64,000 bases of DNA from an uncultured bacterium (GCA_965368975.1 CBDUPA010000003.1:64001-128000), one strand, 5' to 3'; shown: positions 7,627 through 41,950, counted from the first letter of the stretch. Numbers and translations are program-made. The notes: generated by a model not told the origin, from the sequence alone.

Positions 7627-8343
7627 ATGGACATTGCAAAAAAAGCTCTGGAAGTCGCTGAGGATGTGGCGGTCAAGGTGCACAAGGCGCCAGCGGGGTA
7701 CGACGAGGCATCGCTGCCCACGCTGGACGAGATCGGACCGAGCATTCCGACGGGATCCGTCTTGCTGTGCAGCGGCACGGCTGCCGAGAGTCGGTTGATC
7801 GAGGAGGTCGACGGGACGGATTTCAGCCACTCCGCGATCATTGTTCGCTTCCATGGGCAGGAACTGATGGTCTGGACGGCGGATACGGTCGACAAGTTGC
7901 CGGACCAGATTCACAAGATGGCCGATACCGATCATCCTGGGACGCATCTGCTGGTGCTGGCAGACTATCTCCGTGATCTCGACAAGCTGTACCCGTCACC
8001 GGATGGGTCGAACTACCGCTTCGCCGTGGCGCGACTGTTAGGGGTCCAGGTCGACGAGACGAGGCTCTGGAAGACGATGTACCAATACGACGGCACGCCG
8101 TTTCCGCCCACCGCGCAGGAGTTCAAGCATTTCCTCGAGGGCCAGCTCGATGTCGACTCGGGCATGACCAACTCCTTTTGCGCTCAGATGGTGGCGGCCA
8201 CGTATCAGAAGATGGGCTGGTTGAGCACCGAGCATCCGCCCAACTACTACAGCCCAGGATCGTGGGCCAAGACCGACAAGATCAACGAGGACATGCTTGG
8301 TGACGCGCGCTTGGATGAACCCCAATACTTCAAGCTGGGCTGA
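7627..8343 (+). CDS. Permuted papain-like amidase (YiiX/YebB, NlpC/P60-related) family protein
   Basis: GSVLL...FSHSAII (His), later FCAQMVAATYQKMG (Cys) and YSPG: the permuted His-before-Cys order. Confidence 0.65.
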   Translation: MDIAKKALEVAEDVAVKVHKAPAGYDEASLPTLDEIGPSIPTGSVLLCSGTAAESRLIEEVDGTDFSHSAIIVRFHGQELMVWTADTVDKLPDQIHKMADTDHPGTHLLVLADYLRDLDKLYPSPDGSNYRFAVARLLGVQVDETRLWKTMYQYDGTPFPPTAQEFKHFLEGQLDVDSGMTNSFCAQMVAATYQKMGWLSTEHPPNYYSPGSWAKTDKINEDMLGDARLDEPQYFKLG

Positions 8344-25855: not shown

Positions 25856-27127
25856 ATGTCGAATCCCTGCTGCTCCGTCTCGTTTCTGCTTCGAAATCTC
25901 TTCTTCGGCTGTCTCTTGACCCTCGGCAGCGCTGCCGCCTATCCCGCGCAGGGTGAGTCTCTGCAGGCCCGGACGGGAGGTGCTCTGGCCCTGGGCGAAG
26001 CGCTGGCGGTACAGGAGCAAGAGCTGCAGGCGAGTGGTGGTGTCTCTCGGCAGCCGTCGAGCTTGAGCGTCCGCTTGCAGCTGCCCGGCGACGCGCAGCG
26101 TGATCTGCAGCTTCCCGCGACGAGTCATCTGTCGGATCTGGCGGCGGTCGAGCAAGGATGGCTGCTGGCAGCGACAGTGGAGGCGGCGGACGGTCGGCGC
26201 CAGCTGTTCCTGCTCGGGGCGCCCGAGCGGCAGCCGGAGAGTGTCGAGTTGCGGCTGCCGGCGCCGGGGGGGCAACGGGCTGCTGTGCGGTGGCAGCCGG
26301 TGCTGCTGACGAAGCCGGACGGCGACCTGGCGGGGTTGGCCTGGCTCGAGGGGGATGGCTTGCGCTCGCTCTCGGTGCGGGCTGCGGCGTTCGAGGGAAC
26401 CTCGCCCTGGAGCCACGGAGCCGCTTGGAGCCTGCCGCAGGATGTAGCGCCGGCGGGGCCCGGCAGTCAGCTGGCGCTTGCTGGCGCGGTCTTGACCGAC
26501 GGCTCTTGGCTGCTGGTCTGGAGTGGCTTCGATGGGGAGGACGACGAGATCCTGTTTGCCCACCGATCGCCGAGCGGCGTCTGGAGCGGTCCAAGCGTGT
26601 TGCGGCTGCCGGGGGAGGGCGACAATCAGGTGCCGGACATCACGCCGACGGTGGCGGCGCTGGCGGGCGGCGGGGCGATGGTGGCTTGGAGCCGCTTCCA
26701 CCGGCTGGCCGATGGAACCTCGGGCTACCGCTTGCATCGGGCCGTGCTAGAAGTGACTGGACGTGACCAGGCACTGCCGTCTGCAGGCTCCGAGGCAGAG
26801 CGCTGGCAATGGCGCTCGCTCGCTACCGAGGAGGTAGGGACCGGCTTTCCGCACTTCATATCCGAGGGCGCGCAGCCGCGGCTGTTGTTCCAGACGGCTT
26901 GGCCCCGCTCGTGGACACTGCTCGAGCTGACGGTGCAGGGCGACGAGGTACGGCGTGCTCGCGGGGCTGCCGGAGCGCAGGTGGTACCAGTCCTCGAGGC
27001 GGCAAGAGGAGGGGCTGGACGCGACGAGGTTTTGCTGTGGCACTGGCCGGACGGAGAGCGGACGCGTGTCGAGACGGTGACCTGGGAAGCGGTGACGCGG
27101 GATGAGGGCGCGGAGGTCGAGCGATGA
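25856..27127 (+). CDS. Secreted hypothetical protein (beta-rich, possibly propeller-like)
   Basis: Signal peptide; repeated LAW/LVW/VAW strands and DGEDDEI; GC3-biased codons; overlaps the next gene (ATGA). Confidence 0.6.
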   Translation: MSNPCCSVSFLLRNLFFGCLLTLGSAAAYPAQGESLQARTGGALALGEALAVQEQELQASGGVSRQPSSLSVRLQLPGDAQRDLQLPATSHLSDLAAVEQGWLLAATVEAADGRRQLFLLGAPERQPESVELRLPAPGGQRAAVRWQPVLLTKPDGDLAGLAWLEGDGLRSLSVRAAAFEGTSPWSHGAAWSLPQDVAPAGPGSQLALAGAVLTDGSWLLVWSGFDGEDDEILFAHRSPSGVWSGPSVLRLPGEGDNQVPDITPTVAALAGGGAMVAWSRFHRLADGTSGYRLHRAVLEVTGRDQALPSAGSEAERWQWRSLATEEVGTGFPHFISEGAQPRLLFQTAWPRSWTLLELTVQGDEVRRARGAAGAQVVPVLEAARGGAGRDEVLLWHWPDGERTRVETVTWEAVTRDEGAEVER

Positions 27128-28335
27128 GCGCGACCAGGGGGGACGATGCGGTTTTCGTCCGGCGAAGCTCTCTCGGGTTGACCCAGAGGGCAGGACTTTG
27201 CAGTGCGCTTGTGCTCTGGGGGGCACTTCTGTCTTGGGGTTCACATCCCGTGGCAGCGCAGACGACAGTCTTCGTGGGCTTCGGCGACAGCATCACGGCG
27301 GGCACCGGTGACGATCCCGAGCGCGAGGAGACCGGGTACCCGCCGCGGCTGGAGGTGCTACTGGTCAGCGCTGGCGTCGATGCCCAGGTGATCAATGAGG
27401 GTGTCGGGGCCGAGCGCACGCCGGAGGGCCTGGCGCGACTGCCGGATGTCCTGGCCGGGCCAGGCAACGTGCTGCTGCTAATGGAAGGCACCAACGATAT
27501 TTCGCGGTCGATCTCCCCCGAGACGACGCTGTTCAATCTGAACGAGATGGCACGCCAGGCATCCTCGGCCGGCTGGCAGACGATCCACGCGACGTTGATT
27601 CCGCGTCTGCTGAACGCGCGCTTCGATCCCTCGAACACGGAGAATCAGCGCCTGTGCCAGCGCATCCGCAACCTGGCGGGGAACAACGGCCGGCAGTTGG
27701 TCGACCCGTTCGAGATCTACAGCAATTTGCCCGATCTCTATGGAACCTACTATTGGGACGATCCCATCGACCCCGTGGGGCATCCAAATCCGGCCGGCTA
27801 CGACGTGCTGGCGCGGGCCTTCTTCAACGTCATCACCGGGGTCGATGCGGTGGCTCCGGTCGCTGGCCTGGTGATTCCGGCGGATGGTGACTCGGGCGTG
27901 GCGCCGGATGTCGAGATTGAGGTCGACGTGTGGGATTTTGGCGACGGCATCGATCTCGCGGGCACCAGCGTGCTGGTCGATGGTGTGCCGGTGTCGGTGC
28001 AGGCGACGTCGAGCGCGGGACTGGCCCAGCTGCGGTATCGGCCGCCGCAGACGCTGTCGGGTGCCGTGACGCTCGTGTTGCAGAGTCGGGACGTTGCCGG
28101 CAACACCACGCAACGAGAGATTTCGCGCTTCACGATCACGGGCAGCGTGTCGCTGAACGGTGATCTCGACAGCGATGGCCGTGTCGACGGGCAGGATCTG
28201 ATTGCCTTCGCGCGTCGCTTCGGTGCCGTCCAGGGGCAGGCGCGCTATGCCGCTGCCGCGGATTTCAATCGCGACGGAACGATCAACGGCACGGATCTGG
28301 CGGTGCTGGCGGACAACTTCGGGCGTTCGCTCTGA
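27124..28335 (+). CDS. SGNH/GDSL hydrolase with Ig-like and C-terminal dockerin-like domains
   Basis: FGDSIT, EGTND, GHPNPAGY; duplicated GDLDSDGRVDGQD and DFNRDGTINGTD Ca-binding loops. Confidence 0.88.
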   Translation: MSATRGDDAVFVRRSSLGLTQRAGLCSALVLWGALLSWGSHPVAAQTTVFVGFGDSITAGTGDDPEREETGYPPRLEVLLVSAGVDAQVINEGVGAERTPEGLARLPDVLAGPGNVLLLMEGTNDISRSISPETTLFNLNEMARQASSAGWQTIHATLIPRLLNARFDPSNTENQRLCQRIRNLAGNNGRQLVDPFEIYSNLPDLYGTYYWDDPIDPVGHPNPAGYDVLARAFFNVITGVDAVAPVAGLVIPADGDSGVAPDVEIEVDVWDFGDGIDLAGTSVLVDGVPVSVQATSSAGLAQLRYRPPQTLSGAVTLVLQSRDVAGNTTQREISRFTITGSVSLNGDLDSDGRVDGQDLIAFARRFGAVQGQARYAAAADFNRDGTINGTDLAVLADNFGRSL

Positions 28336-30392: not shown

Positions 30393-31205
30393 TCAGGTGC
30401 TGTCGCTAGCTTCTTGGCTGTCACGGTCCTTCAGCCGCGCGCCGCCCAGCGCTCCCACGACACCGCGCAGCGTCCGCACTTCGCTGTCGGTCAAGCCGGC
30501 TCGCTGCAGCAAGTTACGCAGGGTGCGCTGCATGATCGGCCGTTTCTCGGCGGGGTAGAAGTAGTTGGCGGCTTCGAGTTCGCTTTCCAGGTGCTCGAAC
30601 AGGGCGTAGAGTTCTTCTTTGTTCGCCGGACTCTCGTTGTGCTCGCGCACGGCGCTGGCCTTGCCGGGTGTCGAGGGCAGCTGGGGGTCGCCGGTCTGGT
30701 ACCACTCGTAGCCCAGCAGCAGTACGGCTTGCGCCAGGTTGAGCGAGCGAAAGGCAGGGTTGAGCGGCACCGCGACGACCGCGTCGGCGAGCACGATGTG
30801 GTCGTTGATCAGGCCGGCGCGCTCGGGGCCGAAGAGCAGGCCGCAGCGCTCGCCGGCGTCGTGATGGGTGCGCAGCTCGGCGGCAGTTTCCCGCGGTGTG
30901 AGTACTGGTTTGTTCATGTCGCGCGGGCGGGCGGTGGTCGCGTAGAGGTGCTGCAGGTCGGCAACGGCGCTCTCGACATCGTCGAACACGCGTGCGCTGT
31001 CGAGTACCGCGTCGGCACCGGAGGCGGCGGCGATGGCGTTGGGATTGGGCCAGCCGTCGCGAGGCGCTACCAGGCGCAGGTCGGTGAGCCCGCAGTTGAG
31101 CATGGCACGCGCGGTGGTGCCGATGTTCTGTCCCAGTTGCGGTGCGACCAGGATGATCGCCGGGCCGCCGAGGGTGGAGGTCAAGGAAGTGTCGGTGCCT
31201 GCCAT
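30393..31205 (-). CDS. trmJ: tRNA/rRNA 2'-O-methyltransferase, TrmJ/LasT (SPOUT)
   Basis: PQLGQNIGTTARAM, ATTAR, LFGPERAGL, SLNLAQAV. Confidence 0.9.
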   Translation of the reverse strand: MAGTDTSLTSTLGGPAIILVAPQLGQNIGTTARAMLNCGLTDLRLVAPRDGWPNPNAIAAASGADAVLDSARVFDDVESAVADLQHLYATTARPRDMNKPVLTPRETAAELRTHHDAGERCGLLFGPERAGLINDHIVLADAVVAVPLNPAFRSLNLAQAVLLLGYEWYQTGDPQLPSTPGKASAVREHNESPANKEELYALFEHLESELEAANYFYPAEKRPIMQRTLRNLLQRAGLTDSEVRTLRGVVGALGGARLKDRDSQEASDST

Positions 31206-31307
31206 GGCCGCAGAGTCTATGCCATCTGGTCGCCAGGTACAGGCCACCTGGGCTGCTTCGGCTGAACGGGCGAGGCGGGTGTACCGCAAGGAGTCCGGGA
31301 GAAGCCC

Positions 31308-32348
31308 TCAGGACGACTGGCGCGGGCGTTCGCGAACGGGTACCGGCTGTGGGTTGTCGAGGCCGAGGCGGGCGAGCGCGGCGCCGGGATCCAGACGCCA
31401 CTGACGGCGGCCGTAGGGCAGAGCACCGCGTAGCAGGGCCTCGCGTACCGCCAGCGGGTCCGCGTGGCGGCGGTGTTGGAGTTGCAGGCCAAGGAGCAGG
31501 GCGGCGATCCCGGCGACGACCGCGGCGGCCAGCGCCGAGCTACCGTAGAGTTCGGGTCCCCCGGTCGTGTCCGTCAGCAGGGCTTCACCGGGGGCAAGCA
31601 GGTCTGTGTGCGCCGCCGGTTGGCCAGCGTCGTCCGCGCTCAGGGGGCGACCCAGGTGATCGAGCCCGTGCACGCGCAGGAGGGCTGGGGCGCGCCGTGG
31701 CGTTTCTCCGAGCAGCGGTGCCGGACACACGACCAAGACGTTCTGCTCGGCGCAGCGCTGCAGTGCTTCTTCTAGGAGTTGGGCATCCGTGTGTTGCAGC
31801 GCAGGTTCACAGCCACCGACGCAGATGACCTGGGCGCCGTGGTCGAGAGCCTGGCGGATCGCGGTGGCCAGTCGCAGTGGACGGCAGGCGGTGAGACCAC
31901 CGTTGCTGGCAGCGGCGTAGACCGGCAAGATCAACCCGCGGCACACGGGGGCCAAGCCGCGAACGCCGGGCTCTGTGCGACCGAACAGGATGCGGGCCAG
32001 GTGCGAGCCGGCGTCGACGTGCGGTCGTCGCGTGGGTGGTGCCAGTTTCGGGAAGGTCAAGCCCAGCGGTACCAGTTCGTCCAGGTGGGCGTGCAACAGA
32101 CTGGGGTGATGGAGGTCCACCGTGGATGCGAGAAGGGCGATCCGGATCAGGGGATGTCCCCAGGTGCAGGCGAGCAACGGGCGCAGGCCGGGCCAGTCAC
32201 GGACCGCGTCCGGCAGCTCGGAAAAGGGCGTCGGCGTCAACCAGTCGAGAAGCGTTCGTTCGCCGGGCTGCGTCGGCACGGCGGACCGAACTCGGGGCGG
32301 TCGGATGTCCTGCTGGTGAAGCCACTGCCGGTGGGCGGTCTGGGGCAT
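31308..32348 (-). CDS. PatA/PatG-like subtilase domain, apparently catalytically inactive
   Basis: AAGGAGG RBS; PGL...GHPLIRIALLASTVDLHHPSL, GVRGLAPVCRGL, LLAPGE, VAGIAALLLGLQ...DPLAVREALL; the triad residues appear substituted. Confidence 0.7.
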   Translation of the reverse strand: MPQTAHRQWLHQQDIRPPRVRSAVPTQPGERTLLDWLTPTPFSELPDAVRDWPGLRPLLACTWGHPLIRIALLASTVDLHHPSLLHAHLDELVPLGLTFPKLAPPTRRPHVDAGSHLARILFGRTEPGVRGLAPVCRGLILPVYAAASNGGLTACRPLRLATAIRQALDHGAQVICVGGCEPALQHTDAQLLEEALQRCAEQNVLVVCPAPLLGETPRRAPALLRVHGLDHLGRPLSADDAGQPAAHTDLLAPGEALLTDTTGGPELYGSSALAAAVVAGIAALLLGLQLQHRRHADPLAVREALLRGALPYGRRQWRLDPGAALARLGLDNPQPVPVRERPRQSS

Positions 32349-32478
32349 GGTTGGGGGTCCTCCTTGAATCCCAAGACGCTGGTCGCGGTTCGGGAGTGAA
32401 TTTGTCGCGGCACTGAAGTGATCCATGCAGCTGCTCGGAGGCGTGGATCCGATCCGCTGCACTGATAGGCTCCGCGCC

Positions 32479-33474
32479 ATGGAAATCCACGTTTGGTATC
32501 ACTGTCATCAATGTCAGGCACAGCCGATCGAAGGTGTCCGCTGGCATTGCACGACTTGTCCGGATGGACCCGAAAACGACCTCTGTGAGGGGTGTTACCG
32601 GCAATATCAGGCAGGCCAGGTCGAGCACCCGCCGCGCACCAGTCCCGGGTTCGGCATCCGCGGCGAGCACCGGTTCGAGCCTCTGCCTGGAAAGCCAGCC
32701 GCGGGTTTCCAGGCATGGGCGCAGGTGCCGGATGCCCCGGGCCTGGTTTCTGGAGCCGCCACGTCGCCGGCCGTCGCCAACGCCTTGGTGGTTCGGCCGG
32801 AATTCCGTGCCGGACTGGCATCGGCTTTCGGAGGCCACGCTTTCGCGGCACGCTTCGAAGGGAAGACCTTGGTCCTCACCGCGTTGCACGTGATGGACGA
32901 ACTGATCAAGAAGCAGGGTGTCGACACGACCGCTGCCAACGCCGGCTACCGCGGGTGTGAGCTGCCGGCGGTGCTGACCAAGCTCGTGCTCTACGATCTG
33001 TTCGCCGACAACTGGATGCTCGCGGAGCTGGGCACGCTGGAGGGCCACGGGGGAACCGGTCCGATGCTGGAGCTTCCCGACGCGCGCACCGGAGAAGAGG
33101 AACCGTATTCGAATCTCGACCTGGCGGCCTTCGACGCCACTGGCGCCACGTTTCTACGTCCGGCGCCGCTGGCAGCCGAGGTGCCCTCGATTGGCCAACC
33201 GGTGTGGCTGGCGGCGTCGATTCCCGGCCGCACCTCTGGCGGCGGAGACCGGACGCTCGCAGCCACGATTGTCGAGCACACGGAGCGGACCTTGATCTTC
33301 CGGTACTCCGAGCGCGATCTCAGCGGTCCGCTCTATACCAGCGGAGCACCGCTTCTCAATGCCGCGGGCGAAGTGGTGGGAGTCAACGTCGGCGGCGGCC
33401 GGCTGGACGGCGCGCGCGTCGGGCACGCCAACCATGTGGTCAGCGTGCGCCGACATCTGAGCGGGCCTGCCTGA
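32479..33474 (+). CDS. ZZ-type zinc finger fused to a trypsin-like serine protease
   Basis: CHQC..PIEGVRWHCTTC..NDLCEGCY..H..H; protease triad LTALHV, NLDLAAF, TSGAPL. Confidence 0.8.
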   Translation: MEIHVWYHCHQCQAQPIEGVRWHCTTCPDGPENDLCEGCYRQYQAGQVEHPPRTSPGFGIRGEHRFEPLPGKPAAGFQAWAQVPDAPGLVSGAATSPAVANALVVRPEFRAGLASAFGGHAFAARFEGKTLVLTALHVMDELIKKQGVDTTAANAGYRGCELPAVLTKLVLYDLFADNWMLAELGTLEGHGGTGPMLELPDARTGEEEPYSNLDLAAFDATGATFLRPAPLAAEVPSIGQPVWLAASIPGRTSGGGDRTLAATIVEHTERTLIFRYSERDLSGPLYTSGAPLLNAAGEVVGVNVGGGRLDGARVGHANHVVSVRRHLSGPA

Positions 33475-33522
33475 AGAGCTTCGCTGCAGGCCTGCGACTG
33501 CGCTTCGACTCCGAGGCTGAGA

Positions 33523-34452
33523 TCAGTCCGCGTCAGAGTCGGTGTACGGGATCCTCCCCGGAATCAGCTGCTCCGTACCCAGGCCGTCCTCGTCCTTGCC
33601 TTCCCACTCGGCCATGAGGCCGTCGTCGAGGCGGTAGGCGAGGATGTGCATCTGCTGGTCGATGTCGCCCCAGGCGCTGGCCATGTGCCGGTCGTCCAGT
33701 TGCATGCCGACACCGACGAGTGCTGGAGCGTTGCTGGTGCGCTCACCACAGACGTGCTCGTGAGGCTCGACGGTCCACCACTCCAGCGCGAACTGTGTGT
33801 GGTTTGGCGAGCTGTCGGCCTGGTTGATGACCAGCTGCATGGACGGGAAGGTTGTACCATCTGCATGCGTGTAGGTGATGCAGTAGGTGCCGGCGAAGCC
33901 AGCACCGTCCCCGTCTCGTACAGCACTGCCGCCACCGGGACGGTCGTCCTCGAGTAGCTTGCTGCGGTACCAGGACGCCTGCAGACCAGCGTCCTCCTGC
34001 AGCGTGTAGACGACGATGCCGACCGGAGCCCGCAGGTCAGTCAGGTCGACCGGCGAGCGGGCCACGCACAGCCGATTTTCTCCCTCGTGCAGGCAGGGCA
34101 GGCCCGGGCCGCCCCAGGCAGCGAAGCCGTCGAGGGAGGGCTCGGTTTGCCAGCCCGCGTGGATGACGGTGCCAGGACTCTCCTGTTCGAGCCCTACGGT
34201 GCCCCCGTAGGGGGCCCCGGCGGGGGTGACGCCTCGCTCGATGCGGAACGGCGTGACCACGTCCGACAGGTCGCTCAAGGCGAACGGCTGCGTGCTGGCC
34301 GGCGAGGTCTCAGTGACTTCCGGGGCCTTGGTGCTGCCGGAGTCGCTACCGGAGTCATTGCCACAGGCGGTGATCAGGAAGGCACCCAGGACGCTACACA
34401 GGAGTGCGGGAAGCAGGGGCATGAGTCGGAGCTGCCGACGAGGGTCGAACAT
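33523..34452 (-). CDS. Hypothetical lipoprotein
   Basis: GGAGG RBS, LITAC lipobox, Ser-rich linker, beta-rich body. Confidence 0.7.
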   Translation of the reverse strand: MFDPRRQLRLMPLLPALLCSVLGAFLITACGNDSGSDSGSTKAPEVTETSPASTQPFALSDLSDVVTPFRIERGVTPAGAPYGGTVGLEQESPGTVIHAGWQTEPSLDGFAAWGGPGLPCLHEGENRLCVARSPVDLTDLRAPVGIVVYTLQEDAGLQASWYRSKLLEDDRPGGGSAVRDGDGAGFAGTYCITYTHADGTTFPSMQLVINQADSSPNHTQFALEWWTVEPHEHVCGERTSNAPALVGVGMQLDDRHMASAWGDIDQQMHILAYRLDDGLMAEWEGKDEDGLGTEQLIPGRIPYTDSDAD

Positions 34453-34510
34453 GGTCGTCCTCCAAATCGGAGTGGTTATTTAGCTTGCTATCGCAACTAT
34501 CGTACAACAG

Positions 34511-34536
34511 AAAAAGGCGGCCCAAAGGCCGCCTCC
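34511..34536 (-). terminator. Rho-independent terminator after the DUF2911 gene
   Basis: Minus strand reads aggcggcc-tttg-ggccgcct followed by a T-run. Confidence 0.8.
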
Positions 34537-34591
34537 TGAAGCGATCGCCTGATCGCGACGAGTCGCAGGGTGTGTCCGTCAGCTGGCCGAT

Positions 34592-35185
34592 TCAGCTCGC
34601 GGCTGAGACGGGAACCCGCACCTCGGTGTTGATCCACTGCAGCACGATGTCGGTGCCATCTTCATTGGCATCGAGGGTGATGGTCAGCTGGTCGACCTCT
34701 TCCTCCAGCGTGCTCGGCTTGACTTCGACCACCAGCACGTCGTGCTCGGCCTTGTAGCCCTGCTCCCACTTCTGCTCGGCGCGGTTGAAGCGGAAGGTGC
34801 CCCACAAGCCAAGATCGGAGTTGAAGTGGATCTTCCAGCTGTTGGCGCCCGGCGTGGTGAACACGGAGTAGGTGCCGGCCGGCAGTGTCTGACCTGCGAC
34901 CTGCACGTCCTTGGTGACGGTGATCTCGGTGGCTTCGTTGGCGCCGGTACGCCAGACCTGGCCGAATTGCACGAGTGAGTCTTCACCGGCACCGAAGATG
35001 TTGTCGCGATCGCGCTTGTAGGGGCGGCCGTAGGTGATCTTGAGGTAGGCGTCACCGACGTGGGTCTGGGCGATGCCGACCGGGCTGGTGCGGCGCGACG
35101 GGTGGAGATCCTGGGCTTCGGCGGCCAGGGGCAGCAGCAGCGCCGCGGCGATGGCGGCGAAGAGGTATGAACGAAGGTATCGCAT
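34592..35185 (-). CDS. DUF2911 domain secreted protein
   Basis: Signal peptide; SP...ITYGRP, VWRTGANEAT, LPAGTYSVFT. Confidence 0.9.
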   Translation of the reverse strand: MRYLRSYLFAAIAAALLLPLAAEAQDLHPSRRTSPVGIAQTHVGDAYLKITYGRPYKRDRDNIFGAGEDSLVQFGQVWRTGANEATEITVTKDVQVAGQTLPAGTYSVFTTPGANSWKIHFNSDLGLWGTFRFNRAEQKWEQGYKAEHDVLVVEVKPSTLEEEVDQLTITLDANEDGTDIVLQWINTEVRVPVSAAS

Positions 35186-39289: not shown

Positions 39290-41647
39290 TCAGGCCAACA
39301 AGGCCGTGAGTTCCGCCTGGGCGGTGTCACGGTAGGCTTGCAGCGTTGTACGCAGTTTCCCGTGTTCCGGCGTCAGCCTGCCGCTGCCGGGGGCATCCTC
39401 GCTCTCTTCGATGTGCGCTAACGCCTCGAGAGCCAGATCGAGCAGTTCGACGCAGCGGTCCGGCGTCAAGGTCTCGAGCGCTTCCTCGGCGGCGCGTTGC
39501 AGGTAGGGAAGGGCTTTGTGCCAGCGTGCACCGCGGAACCAGTGGTACGCCAGCGCCTCGACCGGTGCGCTGCTACCCCGGTTGCCGGGAGTCGGGGAAC
39601 TGCTCAGCTCCAGTGCTTCGGCGACATCCCGGTGCATTACCTGGCGCCGCTCCTCGCTGACGTAGTCGTAAATCGCCTGGCGAAGTGTCGAGTTGAGGAA
39701 TTCGAACGTCTCGTGCGCCTGCGGCCGTGACTCGTCGGGCAGCTCGGTGAAATCGGCTTGGCGGTGCGGCAGGGCGAGCCGCTGCTCGCGCCAGGTTCCG
39801 ATGTTGGCTAGGACCACCTCGATCTGCTCGTCGGCGGCGCGGAGCAACAGCTGCGGGTCGAAGTGTTGACCAGCGATGGCAGCCAGGGTCAGCAAGCGGC
39901 GCGCCGATGTCGGCAGGTTGCGCAAGCGTCGCACCGCAATCTCGCGCAGCAAGGCGTCACGATCCTCGGGTAGCGTCGGCAACGGAGCCACCAGGTGCCA
40001 GCTCCAATCGCCCTTTTTGGCCAGTACGCCTTCCTCGAACAACAGCTGCGTCAGCTCGCCGAGCAGGTTTGGTCGTGCACCGCCGTAGCGCTCGAAGAAG
40101 GCCGCTAGTTCCTGCGGCTTCTTGGCTTTGCCCAGCAGCGAGCTGGCGAAGCTCTCGACGGTGGCGCTGTCGAACGGTTCGAGCTGCGTCCTGTACAGGC
40201 GCCGCTCGGTCTCGAGCCGGCGAGTCAGTCGCTCCTGGTGTGGGTCGTCGCCGGTGGGAGAGCGTGCCGCGAGGAGCCAGACCGGTGCGTCCTCGAGGTG
40301 GTGCACGAGCTGGTACAACACTTCCAAGCTGGTGGCATCGGCCAGGTGGAGGTCGTCGATGAACAGGACGAGTGGACCGCCGTTGTCCTCGACCCAGGCG
40401 CGCGCCAAAGCACGCAGGAAGTCGGCCATGTGCGCAGGGCAGCGCCGCCGCAGTTCCTCGCGAGTGAGGGTACTCGGCGGTGGCAAGTCGGGTCGTAGGT
40501 GCTGGATCTCGGGCAGCATTCGCGTCAGCTCGGTGAGTTGCTCGATGTCCAGGCTGCCGAGTGCGTTCTGCACCCGCATCGGTTGATCGAGCAGCGCTCG
40601 GTGCAGCAACTCAGCGGCCGGTCGGTAGCCGCTGACGTTGGCGAAGGGGGCCCAGCGGCTGCGCAGGACGAGGGGTAGCGGAGGTGACACGATCTCGCGC
40701 AGGATGCGGTCGACCAGTGCTGTCTTGCCGGTGCCGGAATCGCCTTCGAGCAGCACCAAGCAGCCGCTGCGCCGCTGTTGCCACCAGCGCATGAGCTGTC
40801 CGAGCTCTACTTGGCGACCGGAGAAGGGAAGCATGGGACGCTTCGGCGCCCAGCTCTCGATCTCCCAAGTGCGTGCTTCTTCGAGTGGCTTCTGCGCCAG
40901 GATCAGGCGGTAGAGCGAGACGGTGTCCTCGCTCGGCGCGACCCCCAATTCGGCGTCCAACAGCTGGCGGCAGAGGTCGAACTGCTGGATCGCCTCGCCG
41001 CGTTTGCCTGCCAACGAGTAGAGCCGGATCAGGCTGGCGTGCGCCGGCTCGGAAAGCGGCTCGATGTCGATCAGGCGGCGCGCGTAGCGAATGCCCGAGC
41101 TGTACTCGTGGTGCTCCAAGCAGTAGTCGACCAGCGTGCGCAGCGAGTCGCCTGCCGCTTCGCGGTACTTCTCCTGCTCGCCTGCCATCCAATTCTCGAA
41201 CTCGGGCGCGTCGCGCACGGCGAAGCCCTTGAGCAGATCGCCGCGAAAGAGTTCCACAGCTCCTGCGAGGTGGTGGATGCGGTCGGCACCGCGCGCCATT
41301 ATGCCTCGCGAGCGCGTGCGTTCGAAGGCCTCGAGGTCGAGCCAGTACTCGACTTCCGGCGTCATGCGGACGCTCTGCCGAGTCGTCGAAATCGGAGAGG
41401 CCGCGCCGACTTTCTGAAACGCCGCGCGCAGATTGTAGAGCGATTGACGCAGGCTGCGCCGGGCGCTGTCGCCATCGGCGTCTGCCCACAGCAGCCCCAT
41501 CAGGTCGTCGCGGCTGTGTCCGCGATCCCGCAGCACAGTCAGGTAGGCGAACAGGGCGCGTACCTTCTGGGACTCGAAACCTGTGACCGGCTCGCCGCCA
41601 TAACGGACATCGAAGCCGCCGAGCAGGCGGATCTCCAATCGGCTCAT
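39290..41647 (-). CDS. SARP/AfsR-like transcriptional regulator (wHTH + BTAD + AAA ATPase)
   Basis: IRLLGGF...KVRALFAYL, LW...SLRQSLYNLR, BTAD (EPLSEPAH...ELGVAPS), P-loop GDSGTGKT, Walker B LFIDDLH. Confidence 0.92.
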   Translation of the reverse strand: MSRLEIRLLGGFDVRYGGEPVTGFESQKVRALFAYLTVLRDRGHSRDDLMGLLWADADGDSARRSLRQSLYNLRAAFQKVGAASPISTTRQSVRMTPEVEYWLDLEAFERTRSRGIMARGADRIHHLAGAVELFRGDLLKGFAVRDAPEFENWMAGEQEKYREAAGDSLRTLVDYCLEHHEYSSGIRYARRLIDIEPLSEPAHASLIRLYSLAGKRGEAIQQFDLCRQLLDAELGVAPSEDTVSLYRLILAQKPLEEARTWEIESWAPKRPMLPFSGRQVELGQLMRWWQQRRSGCLVLLEGDSGTGKTALVDRILREIVSPPLPLVLRSRWAPFANVSGYRPAAELLHRALLDQPMRVQNALGSLDIEQLTELTRMLPEIQHLRPDLPPPSTLTREELRRRCPAHMADFLRALARAWVEDNGGPLVLFIDDLHLADATSLEVLYQLVHHLEDAPVWLLAARSPTGDDPHQERLTRRLETERRLYRTQLEPFDSATVESFASSLLGKAKKPQELAAFFERYGGARPNLLGELTQLLFEEGVLAKKGDWSWHLVAPLPTLPEDRDALLREIAVRRLRNLPTSARRLLTLAAIAGQHFDPQLLLRAADEQIEVVLANIGTWREQRLALPHRQADFTELPDESRPQAHETFEFLNSTLRQAIYDYVSEERRQVMHRDVAEALELSSSPTPGNRGSSAPVEALAYHWFRGARWHKALPYLQRAAEEALETLTPDRCVELLDLALEALAHIEESEDAPGSGRLTPEHGKLRTTLQAYRDTAQAELTALLA

Positions 41648-41758
41648 GCGAAATCTCCCTGGCGATATGTCGGCATCCCCGGGGGTTGGCGTCCAACGAG
41701 ATGCTGGGAGCATTCCATCACGAACGGCGGGGCGGTTCAATGAAAGTGTTTTCGGTCT

Positions 41759-41779
41759 CCTGATGCTCTCCTGACGAAG
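41759..41779 (+). promoter_or_regulatory. Direct-repeat box 1 (CCTGAT-N5-CCTGAC)
   Basis: cctgatgctctcctgacgaag; 19/21 identical to box 2; 11-bp period. Confidence 0.65.
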
Positions 41780-41950
41780 AATGTGGAAACTCAAGATCGA
41801 TGACAGCGAAAGGACTGCAATCGAGCCTTGCTAAGCAGGTCGAGAACCGCGGTCCGGCAGCATGCTCAGAAGGGTTTGTGTTCTGTTTTTGCAATGCGCA
41901 AGTGGCTATGAGTCCGGAGTTTCGGTCCCAACCTGGCCTCCGGGCGGCCG

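Follow-up and report, generated by a model that had tools for sequence, protein, structure and literature searches.

A bacterial family of S1-fold peptidases with an N-terminal ZZ zinc finger and a recurrent non-ribosomal peptide synthetase neighbourhood

ZZ zinc fingers are known from textbooks as eukaryotic domains that read free protein N-termini. In p62/SQSTM1, PRT1, BIG/UBR4, ZZZ3, HERC2 and p300, the finger is joined to ubiquitin-ligase, autophagy or chromatin modules. The domain has eight zinc ligands, in a CCCCCCHH pattern, and a 2015 analysis placed it only in eukaryotes (PMC4506424). This view no longer holds now that bacterial 'ZZ histones' are known; these have an N-terminal ZZ, with C4 and C2H2 sites, resembling that of HERC2, p300 and ZZZ3 (PMC11390915). 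In these, the eukaryotic pocket residues are reported not to be conserved. With respect to that pocket, p62 uses D129 and D149 to hold the alpha-NH3+ group, and D147 to bind the first peptide nitrogen (PMC6098011). In ZZZ3, D824 and D848 hold the alpha-amino group and, more generally, H3-binding ZZ domains pair an invariable Asp with a second residue that is either Asp or Asn (PMC6138639). Here, we analysed 64,000 nucleotides of DNA from an uncultured bacterium (GCA_965368975.1, CBDUPA010000003.1:64001-128000), hereafter the window. It encodes a protein, ZZ-S1, in which a ZZ finger precedes a chymotrypsin-fold (S1) peptidase. We conclude that ZZ-S1 is a real, conserved and uncharacterised S1 peptidase with a ZZ recognition module. 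The best explanation, to which we assign a probability of roughly 0.45, is a cytoplasmic, ZZ-guided peptide hydrolase tied to non-ribosomal peptide metabolism.

The gene and its parts are as follows.

32479..33474, plus strand: ZZ-S1 peptidase gene, 331 codons plus stop (basis: reading frame, translation and Pfam)
32482..32676, plus strand: ZZ zinc finger, residues 2-66 (Pfam, sequence matches, a model of the ZZ alone, and conservation)
32677..32748, plus strand: structured linker, residues 67-90 (helices 74-82 and 87-91; predicted local distance difference test score, pLDDT, 92-94)
32749..33471, plus strand: chymotrypsin-fold (S1, Trypsin_2) peptidase domain, residues 91-331 (Pfam, structure comparison and triad)
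32887-32889, 33118-33120 and 33340-33342, plus strand: codons for catalytic His137, Asp214 and Ser288, respectively (checked)

The finger was detected by Pfam as PF00569 (residues 4-46, E 6.9e-10), with 39 bits against a cut-off of 21.4. A preliminary description of this DNA had noted an N-terminal ZZ pattern. This was borne out; inspection of individual codons identified C9/C12, C24/C27, D34-L35-C36/C39, H50 and H64, completing the CCCCCCHH set. On the basis of homology with p62, we predict that C9, C12, C36 and C39 bind one zinc (Zn1) and that C24, C27, H50 and H64 bind another (Zn2), with both histidines tentatively assigned. The second histidine falls 14 residues past the first, which is a wider spacing than in p62. 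ZZ-S1 has its Pfam family and fold in common with the eukaryotic ZZ domains listed above. With those that read N-termini, it also shares the CxxC/CxxC/CxxC/H/H order, the GxR[FYW]xC motif and the DxDLC loop. By sequence, the closest matches are BIG (3e-8) and ZZZ3 (1.3e-7), and HERC2, PRT1 and p62 were also found.

Structure prediction gave a similar picture. Residues 1-75, modelled alone, had a pLDDT of 90. This model matched HERC2, BIG, PRT1, p62, MIB1 and ZZZ3 with template modelling (TM) scores of 0.70-0.78, normalised to the target. Among the matches listed, ZZ domains were returned exclusively, with HERC2, BIG, PRT1 and p62 in the lead. Most of the ZZ structures matched were solved with N-terminal peptides. 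Owing to the small size of the domain, Foldseek E values were modest (4e-3 to 1e-1). The possibility, raised in the preliminary description, that neither a profile nor a structure would recognise the finger can therefore be set aside. Together, the sequence matches and the model support placing the ZZ of ZZ-S1 with the solved N-terminus-reading domains of BIG, ZZZ3, HERC2, PRT1 and p62.

We then compared the ligand pocket. Judged by distance from the zinc cysteines, D34 is equivalent to p62 D149 and ZZZ3 D848, E32 to p62 D147, and H10 to p62 D129 and ZZZ3 D824. The same assignment had been proposed for p62 in the preliminary description, and holds. Note that conservation counts, here and below, refer to an alignment of 120 listed relatives out of 173. 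D34, the loop Asp of the D-[LF]-C motif in N-terminus-reading ZZ domains, is kept in 112/120 members, and position 32 is Asp or Glu in 116/120. Conversely, position 10, in the first CxxC loop of ZZ-S1, is neither Asp nor Asn, unlike in the N-terminus-reading subgroup; where p62 and ZZZ3 have Asp, ZZ-S1 has His. Hence, since positions 32 and 34 are conserved but position 10 is His, the alignment indicates that the groove is under selection without forming the canonical acidic cage. ZZ-S1 also differs from the ZZ histones, in that its partner is a protease, rather than a histone fold, and two pocket acids are conserved.

These similarities might suggest a role in protein turnover. In such a scheme, the ZZ would read destabilising protein N-termini and the fused protease would degrade or activate the target, in parallel to ClpS-ClpAP. 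The closest solved ZZ domains, by both sequence and fold, are indeed N-degron or N-tail readers (BIG, PRT1, p62, ZZZ3 and HERC2). Furthermore, the D/E32-x-D34-L-C motif is conserved and the protein is predicted to be cytoplasmic. However, the Asp that would hold the alpha-amine is replaced by His, and the distribution and neighbours of the gene, described below, also fit poorly. We consider an N-degron-like protease unlikely.

In the second half of the protein, Trypsin_2 (PF13365) was matched at residues 130-302 (E 3.3e-6). This is a marginal pass, with 28.3 bits against a cut-off of 27.6. Hence, both of the Pfam families proposed at the outset are above cut-off (39 versus 21.4 bits for PF00569). 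The intact His/Asp/Ser triad reported previously was confirmed at the codon level, with H137 in LTALHV, D214 in DLAAF and S288 in TSGAP. ZZ-S1 is thus apparently a soluble, catalytically competent serine peptidase, with Ser288, His137 and Asp214 as the predicted catalytic residues. Residues ~90-331 of the model aligned with MarP/Rv3671c (3k6z) at Z 15.9 (root-mean-square deviation 3.7, 181 residues aligned), using VIA-align, and with DegS (2qf0) at Z 15.3. Other matches were HtrA3, a Glu-endopeptidase and V8-type enzymes (Z 14-16), as well as Deg1, and Foldseek concurs on a chymotrypsin fold (E 1e-8 to 1e-7). As modelled, the protease half is a generic chymotrypsin fold, with no subfamily closer than others.

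The HtrA/DegS/MarP and V8-type proteases share with ZZ-S1 a double beta-barrel, the His-Asp-Ser order and a GxSGxP-like motif (TSGAP). Unlike HtrA, DegS and MarP, ZZ-S1 has no signal peptide, membrane anchor or PDZ domain, is predicted to be cytoplasmic, and carries an N-terminal ZZ finger. Sequence identity to solved proteases is 10-22%. Lacking both a PDZ domain, according to Pfam, and a signal peptide, ZZ-S1 falls outside the HtrA/DegP family. A further comparison is with S46 dipeptidyl peptidases, where an endopeptidase fold is made an N-terminus-dependent exopeptidase by an added domain. The cores of two such enzymes, DPP11 and DAP BII, match ZZ-S1 at Z 14.1 and 13.5, which is not above generic S1. 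The added domain of S46 enzymes, which are periplasmic and ~700 residues long, is a helical insert, whereas ZZ-S1 has a zinc finger.

The full chain was modelled with AlphaFold2, from a 28-sequence alignment, giving a pLDDT of 92.4 and a predicted TM score of 0.91. No segment has a pLDDT under 50. Hence, finger, linker and protease are predicted as one body. Within the linker, W80 is invariant (120/120 members). According to this model, the ZZ is a fixed, integral part of the enzyme and not a loosely tethered module.

The start of the gene was also considered. The stop-to-stop frame is open from 32425 to 33474 on the plus strand. Translation from the ATG at 32479 yields 331 residues, beginning MEIHVW, while an alternative in-frame ATG, at 32425, would add 18 more. 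We prefer 32479 because the closest relative (P0002 in our collection, 81% identity) likewise begins MEIHVW, and N-termini are short across the family. Both candidate starts have weak ribosome-binding sites, and a promoter scan of 31000-34800 did not find a sigma-70 consensus. A screen for sequencing runs with this DNA listed no RNA run, and a single DNA run with a 0.07 share of the words. The N-terminus, MEIHVWYHCHQC, reads as having no signal-like hydrophobic stretch. This agrees with the absence of a signal peptide noted in the preliminary description, and we predict that ZZ-S1 is cytoplasmic.

Our next consideration was the extent of the family. Of 8000 candidates scored in a word-indexed search, 173 proved to be relatives at E<=1e-3. 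Those listed, 120 in number, are all full length (311-354 residues, 44-81% identical, 95-100% of the query covered) and 96 of them have both Pfam hits precomputed. In an exhaustive search of 1.84 billion representatives there were 417 matches at E<=1e-3, with 36 at E<=1e-30. Each triad residue is kept in 120/120 members. Zinc ligands are conserved almost as completely: C24 and C36 in 120/120, C39 in 119/120, and C27, H50 and H64 in 117/120. For rows without a gap, C9 is kept in 117/117 and C12 in 116/117. Given this conservation, and the matches between the ZZ model and solved ZZ domains, the combined ZZ and triad pattern is far beyond chance.

Existing resources also contain the family. In the ESM Atlas there is a 95-member bacterial cluster, with ZZ in 86% and Trypsin_2 in 83%. 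A few relatives have been named automatically in databases, for example as 'ZZ-type protein' or as 'trypsin-like peptidase/ZZ type zinc finger protein'. The family lacks an NCBIfam model, and a full-text literature search found no publication on the ZZ-protease architecture. Hence, while the preliminary description had allowed that the fusion might be common and already characterised, we find a conserved family, automatically named in places, that is rare and uncharacterised. A search for longer forms (581-2000 residues) gave no match, which is weak evidence. When the ZZ region (residues 1-75) was used as the query, only three candidates were scored, and the search returned ZZ-S1 itself (P0001) and P0002.

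The taxonomic survey proposed in the preliminary description shows a fusion that recurs, rarely, in several bacterial phyla. Named genome loci are from the Acidobacteriota (Bryobacteraceae, Acidobacteriaceae and Acanthopleuribacteraceae), Candidatus Aminicenantes, Alpha-, Beta- and Gammaproteobacteria, and Opitutaceae. They include a cultured carrier, the gammaproteobacterium Aliikangiella marina GYP-15 (locus L019). A further 76 loci are from metagenomes. ZZ-S1 is single-copy in its 7.1-Mb host genome, and the gene was not found in any of the 40 relatives searched (5 from the same family and 35 from the same order; 38 are at least 90% complete). The family is rare, patchy and scattered across phyla, as expected of an accessory, horizontally moving gene. 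Returning to the N-degron-like protease, a gene that was found in none of the 40 relatives, and is rare overall, would be a poor fit to core proteostasis.

The preliminary description had suggested a defence protease. This would be activated by, or would cut, an invader-derived N-terminus. In line with this, the distribution is sporadic, resembling horizontal transfer, and neighbours of a mobile or toxin-antitoxin type occur in a few loci; AbiEi and an AAA_14 ATPase are encoded in L003, and an integrase in L018. The S8 peptidase gene next to ZZ-S1 in the window also matches the PADLOC 'subtilase' model, albeit weakly (30 bits). However, no PADLOC family matches ZZ-S1 itself. In 40 pattern-matched stretches of viral contigs, none encoded a ZZ-S1 relative, and a tblastn search of plasmids gave no match. 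Across 100 loci there was no recurrent defence neighbour, sensor or NTPase partner, and the flanks of the window copy are housekeeping and envelope genes. An anti-phage or conflict role is thus highly improbable. Hence, the earlier interpretation stands with respect to a true ZZ fused to an apparently active, cytoplasmic S1 protease, but not with respect to defence.

The recurrent neighbours of ZZ-S1 are instead genes for non-ribosomal peptide synthetases (NRPSs); this link is the new lead from our analysis. Open reading frames (ORFs) were called in 101 loci and neighbours were clustered by BLAST. The target ORF was present in 92 loci, which form 78 non-redundant groups at 95% identity. We scored NRPS-type megasynthases and an accessory set, consisting of MbtH, a CmlA-like hydroxylase, a thioesterase or a phosphopantetheinyl transferase (PPTase). 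The counts are listed below.

All 78 non-redundant loci: megasynthase ORF in 20; megasynthase or accessory gene in 26
Flank of 6 kb or more (34 non-redundant loci): megasynthase ORF in 11; megasynthase or accessory gene in 13
Flank of 12 kb or more (23 non-redundant loci): megasynthase ORF in 8; megasynthase or accessory gene in 9

In sampled loci, Pfam confirmed condensation, adenylation, carrier, thioesterase, MbtH, PhyH and CmlA_N domains. The sampled loci also hold an AprA-type loading module, an ABC exporter, a PPTase and HSP90. The gene for MbtH is immediately upstream of ZZ-S1 in 7 loci. Furthermore, spacing is conserved. In L012/L099, L061 and L064, the NRPS gene is followed, after 13 bp, by mbtH and, after a further 42 bp, by ZZ-S1; in L013, the equivalent gaps are nearly identical (12 and 31 bp). 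This NRPS-MbtH-ZZ-S1 order is operon-like. In other loci, genes for a CmlA-like hydroxylase and a PPTase adjoin ZZ-S1. A gene for HSP90/HtpG is just 3' of ZZ-S1 in the NRPS-linked loci L051-L053 and L092. The placement of ZZ-S1 among NRPS genes is also evident at larger scale. For instance, all 11 condensation-domain matches in the 7.0-Mb L010 genome form one cluster, beginning beside ZZ-S1. The L012 genome has two NRPS contigs, one of which carries ZZ-S1. In A. marina, ZZ-S1 is at the edge of a ~180-kb NRPS island.

We estimated the probability of this arrangement arising by chance. For at least 13 of 33 loci to have an NRPS neighbour, the value is ~3e-9 to 8e-6, assuming, rather than measuring, a background of 5-10%. 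Note that this figure is only a rough guide, since the 33 loci are from a hand count and the total was later fixed at 34. A quick IQ-TREE family tree was built from 75 rows, 5 duplicates having been removed. In this tree, loci with NRPS context fall into several clades, to either side of the midpoint. The window protein groups only with P0002 and P0003. Because NRPS machinery is the recurrent genomic partner, small peptides, and not proteins, are pointed to as substrates. By the same token, N-degron-like turnover is disfavoured, since the recurrent neighbours are not chaperones or Clp components.

In L007, a Peptidase_S51 gene is 3 bp downstream of ZZ-S1; in L019 and L051-L053, such a gene is 75-84 bp upstream. 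Overall, genes of this type (~240 residues, cyanophycinase/dipeptidase E family) are near ZZ-S1 in eight loci (L007, L015, L017, L019, L023 and L051-L053), and some of these show no NRPS gene in view. Separately, L017 encodes a 90-residue zf-UBP protein (7653-7925, plus strand; PF02148, E 3e-11), 57 bp upstream of ZZ-S1. The zf-UBP domain is a eukaryote-type zinc finger that reads free C-termini.

The proposed mechanism is as follows. ZZ-S1 would most likely hydrolyse small peptides, be they non-ribosomal, other secondary-metabolite, or carrier-bound precursors. The ZZ groove (H10, D/E32 and D34) would anchor the substrate, probably by its free amino terminus, so positioned that the peptidase could cut at a set distance. 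The outcome might be pro-peptide trimming, editing or self-protection. Our data show the domain identities, the catalytic and zinc residues, a confident prediction of a single body, conservation across the family and the genomic association; that the ZZ binds a ligand, which class of substrate is used and in what register it is cut are inferences. There is precedent for such a requirement in nocardicin biosynthesis, where a hydrolase is needed to take N-terminal residues off the NRPS product, and trimming of the pro-peptide was left to an 'unknown cellular protease' (PMC6711958). By analogy, N-terminal pro-peptide trimming would be the most attractive concrete mechanism for ZZ-S1. Like peptidases that trim non-ribosomal peptides, ZZ-S1 is placed among NRPS genes in some family loci, although the window copy is outside any cluster. 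Prodrug peptidases of the ClbP type are periplasmic, with an S12 beta-lactamase fold. The specific version is appealing but doubtful. In it, a pro-peptide, non-ribosomal or otherwise small, would be caught by the ZZ at its free amino terminus, and the S1 domain would then remove a defined N-terminal fragment.

If the finger does read peptide N-termini, ZZ-S1 would combine recognition and cutting in one compact enzyme. It would then be a candidate for the trimming proteases that are still unassigned in non-ribosomal peptide pathways, and a possible tool for N-terminus-specific proteolysis. What makes the protein unusual is a bacterial ZZ, with half of the predicted N-terminus cage, joined to an active-looking protease and found repeatedly among NRPS genes. 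Should trimming be its role, ZZ-S1 would define a first class of enzymes that trim a 'non-ribosomal pro-peptide', as well as being a bacterial counterpart, and possibly the source, of the eukaryotic ZZ N-recognin module.

Several observations weigh against a peptide hydrolase tied to non-ribosomal peptide metabolism. First, when 6 kb or more of flank is available (34 non-redundant loci), 21 loci show no NRPS-type gene, and an 18-row clade, including the Aminicenantes rows, has no NRPS-type neighbour. Second, some NRPS-positive genomes are very NRPS-rich, with 50 and 54 condensation domains, so adjacency is less surprising there. Third, NRPS neighbours were defined by BLAST clustering, with Pfam applied to a sample only. 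Fourth, position 10, where p62 and ZZZ3 have an Asp that holds the alpha-amine, is His in 103/117 members and Asn in 4. Finally, no NRPS gene adjoins the window copy. Of the 119 condensation-domain matches in the host genome, none is on the window contig (C3), and this copy of ZZ-S1 thus stands alone in an organism that is very rich in NRPSs.

Relatives of the protease half that lack the ZZ were informative. In the exhaustive search, stand-alone relatives of ~230-280 residues rank below the full-length family, and several have signal peptides. They share RPxF, LTALH, D[IV]AAF and TSGAP motifs, from query residue ~91 onwards. In 2 of 28 proteins scanned (P0261, 410 residues, and P0207, 457 residues), a phosphopantetheine carrier domain precedes the protease. 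Because of these two fusions, we conclude that the protease lineage has apparently been recruited to carrier-protein chemistry more than once. In both proteins, the S1-fold domain occupies the usual place of a thioesterase. The start of P0261 resembles what we take to be the end of an adenylation domain. Eight residues that are invariant in the ZZ family (D140, E141, W179, E208, P209, H316, H319 and H326) are different or missing in 44 ZZ-less relatives. They are candidates for an inter-domain interface or an extended binding site. Note that H316, H319 and H326 are near the C-terminus, and might contribute to an interface or to a further metal site.

Carrier fusions, and the MbtH, PPTase and HtpG genes that adjoin ZZ-S1, might instead indicate an assembly-line helper. 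The ZZ would then have a structural role or serve for docking, for instance to a synthetase, MbtH or HtpG, and would read no free N-terminus. The Ser-His-Asp domain would edit or release carrier-bound thioesters, like a type II thioesterase, or clear damaged synthetases. The family-specific protease residues could, in that case, mark an interface between ZZ and protease rather than a ligand site. On the other hand, a purely structural role leaves conservation of D/E32 and D34 in the groove unexplained. In addition, clusters such as L012 already have a terminal thioesterase domain and a separate thioesterase, and many loci are without any synthetase. We regard a helper of this type as improbable, and continue to favour a ZZ-guided peptide hydrolase.

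Genes flanking ZZ-S1 in the window are listed below.

32349..32478, no strand: divergent intergenic region of 130 bp, between the PatA-like and ZZ-S1 genes; presumed promoter region
31308..32348, minus strand: PatA/PatG-like subtilisin (S8) homologue, 346 residues from its likely start (match to 4h6w, E 4.5e-34)
33523..34452, minus strand: predicted lipoprotein, 309 residues, lipobox ITAC (no Pfam or NCBIfam match)
27124..28335, plus strand: GDSL lipase with a C-terminal dockerin type I domain
39290..41794, minus strand: regulator with BTAD and AAA_16 domains, 834 residues
42059..46114, plus strand: protein of 1351 residues with SdrD_B repeats and a Golvesin_C domain, beside the BTAD regulator

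The likely start of the PatA-like gene, an ATG at 32348 on the minus strand, has an AAGGAGG ribosome-binding site upstream. When aligned with the cyanobactin protease 4h6w, LLAS of the PatA-like protein is opposite VLDG. Hence, Ala is at the catalytic Asp position, while His and Ser are kept. This protein might be a pseudo-protease, or might rely on another acid. We considered, and rejected, a surrounding cyanobactin cluster; the genome's single YcaO gene is on another contig, and the score with the PatA model TIGR03895 (120.7 bits) is far below the 421-bit cut-off. BLAST clustering detected no counterpart of the PatA-like gene beside ZZ-S1 in 100 other loci. In 6 of the 40 relatives it has partial matches, inside other, mostly longer, frames. 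The lipoprotein gene downstream of ZZ-S1 was found in none of the 40. Given that neither ZZ-S1 nor the lipoprotein gene was found in these genomes, and that S8 matches are partial, no conserved local module can be defined for the window copy.

Elsewhere in the host genome, NRPS matches are on contigs C1, C2, C5, C6, C12, C19, C25 and others, with open frames of up to 14,804 residues. The wider flanks of ZZ-S1 encode a SpoU methylase, alpha/beta hydrolases, the GDSL lipase with dockerin, a DUF2911 protein and MlaDEF.

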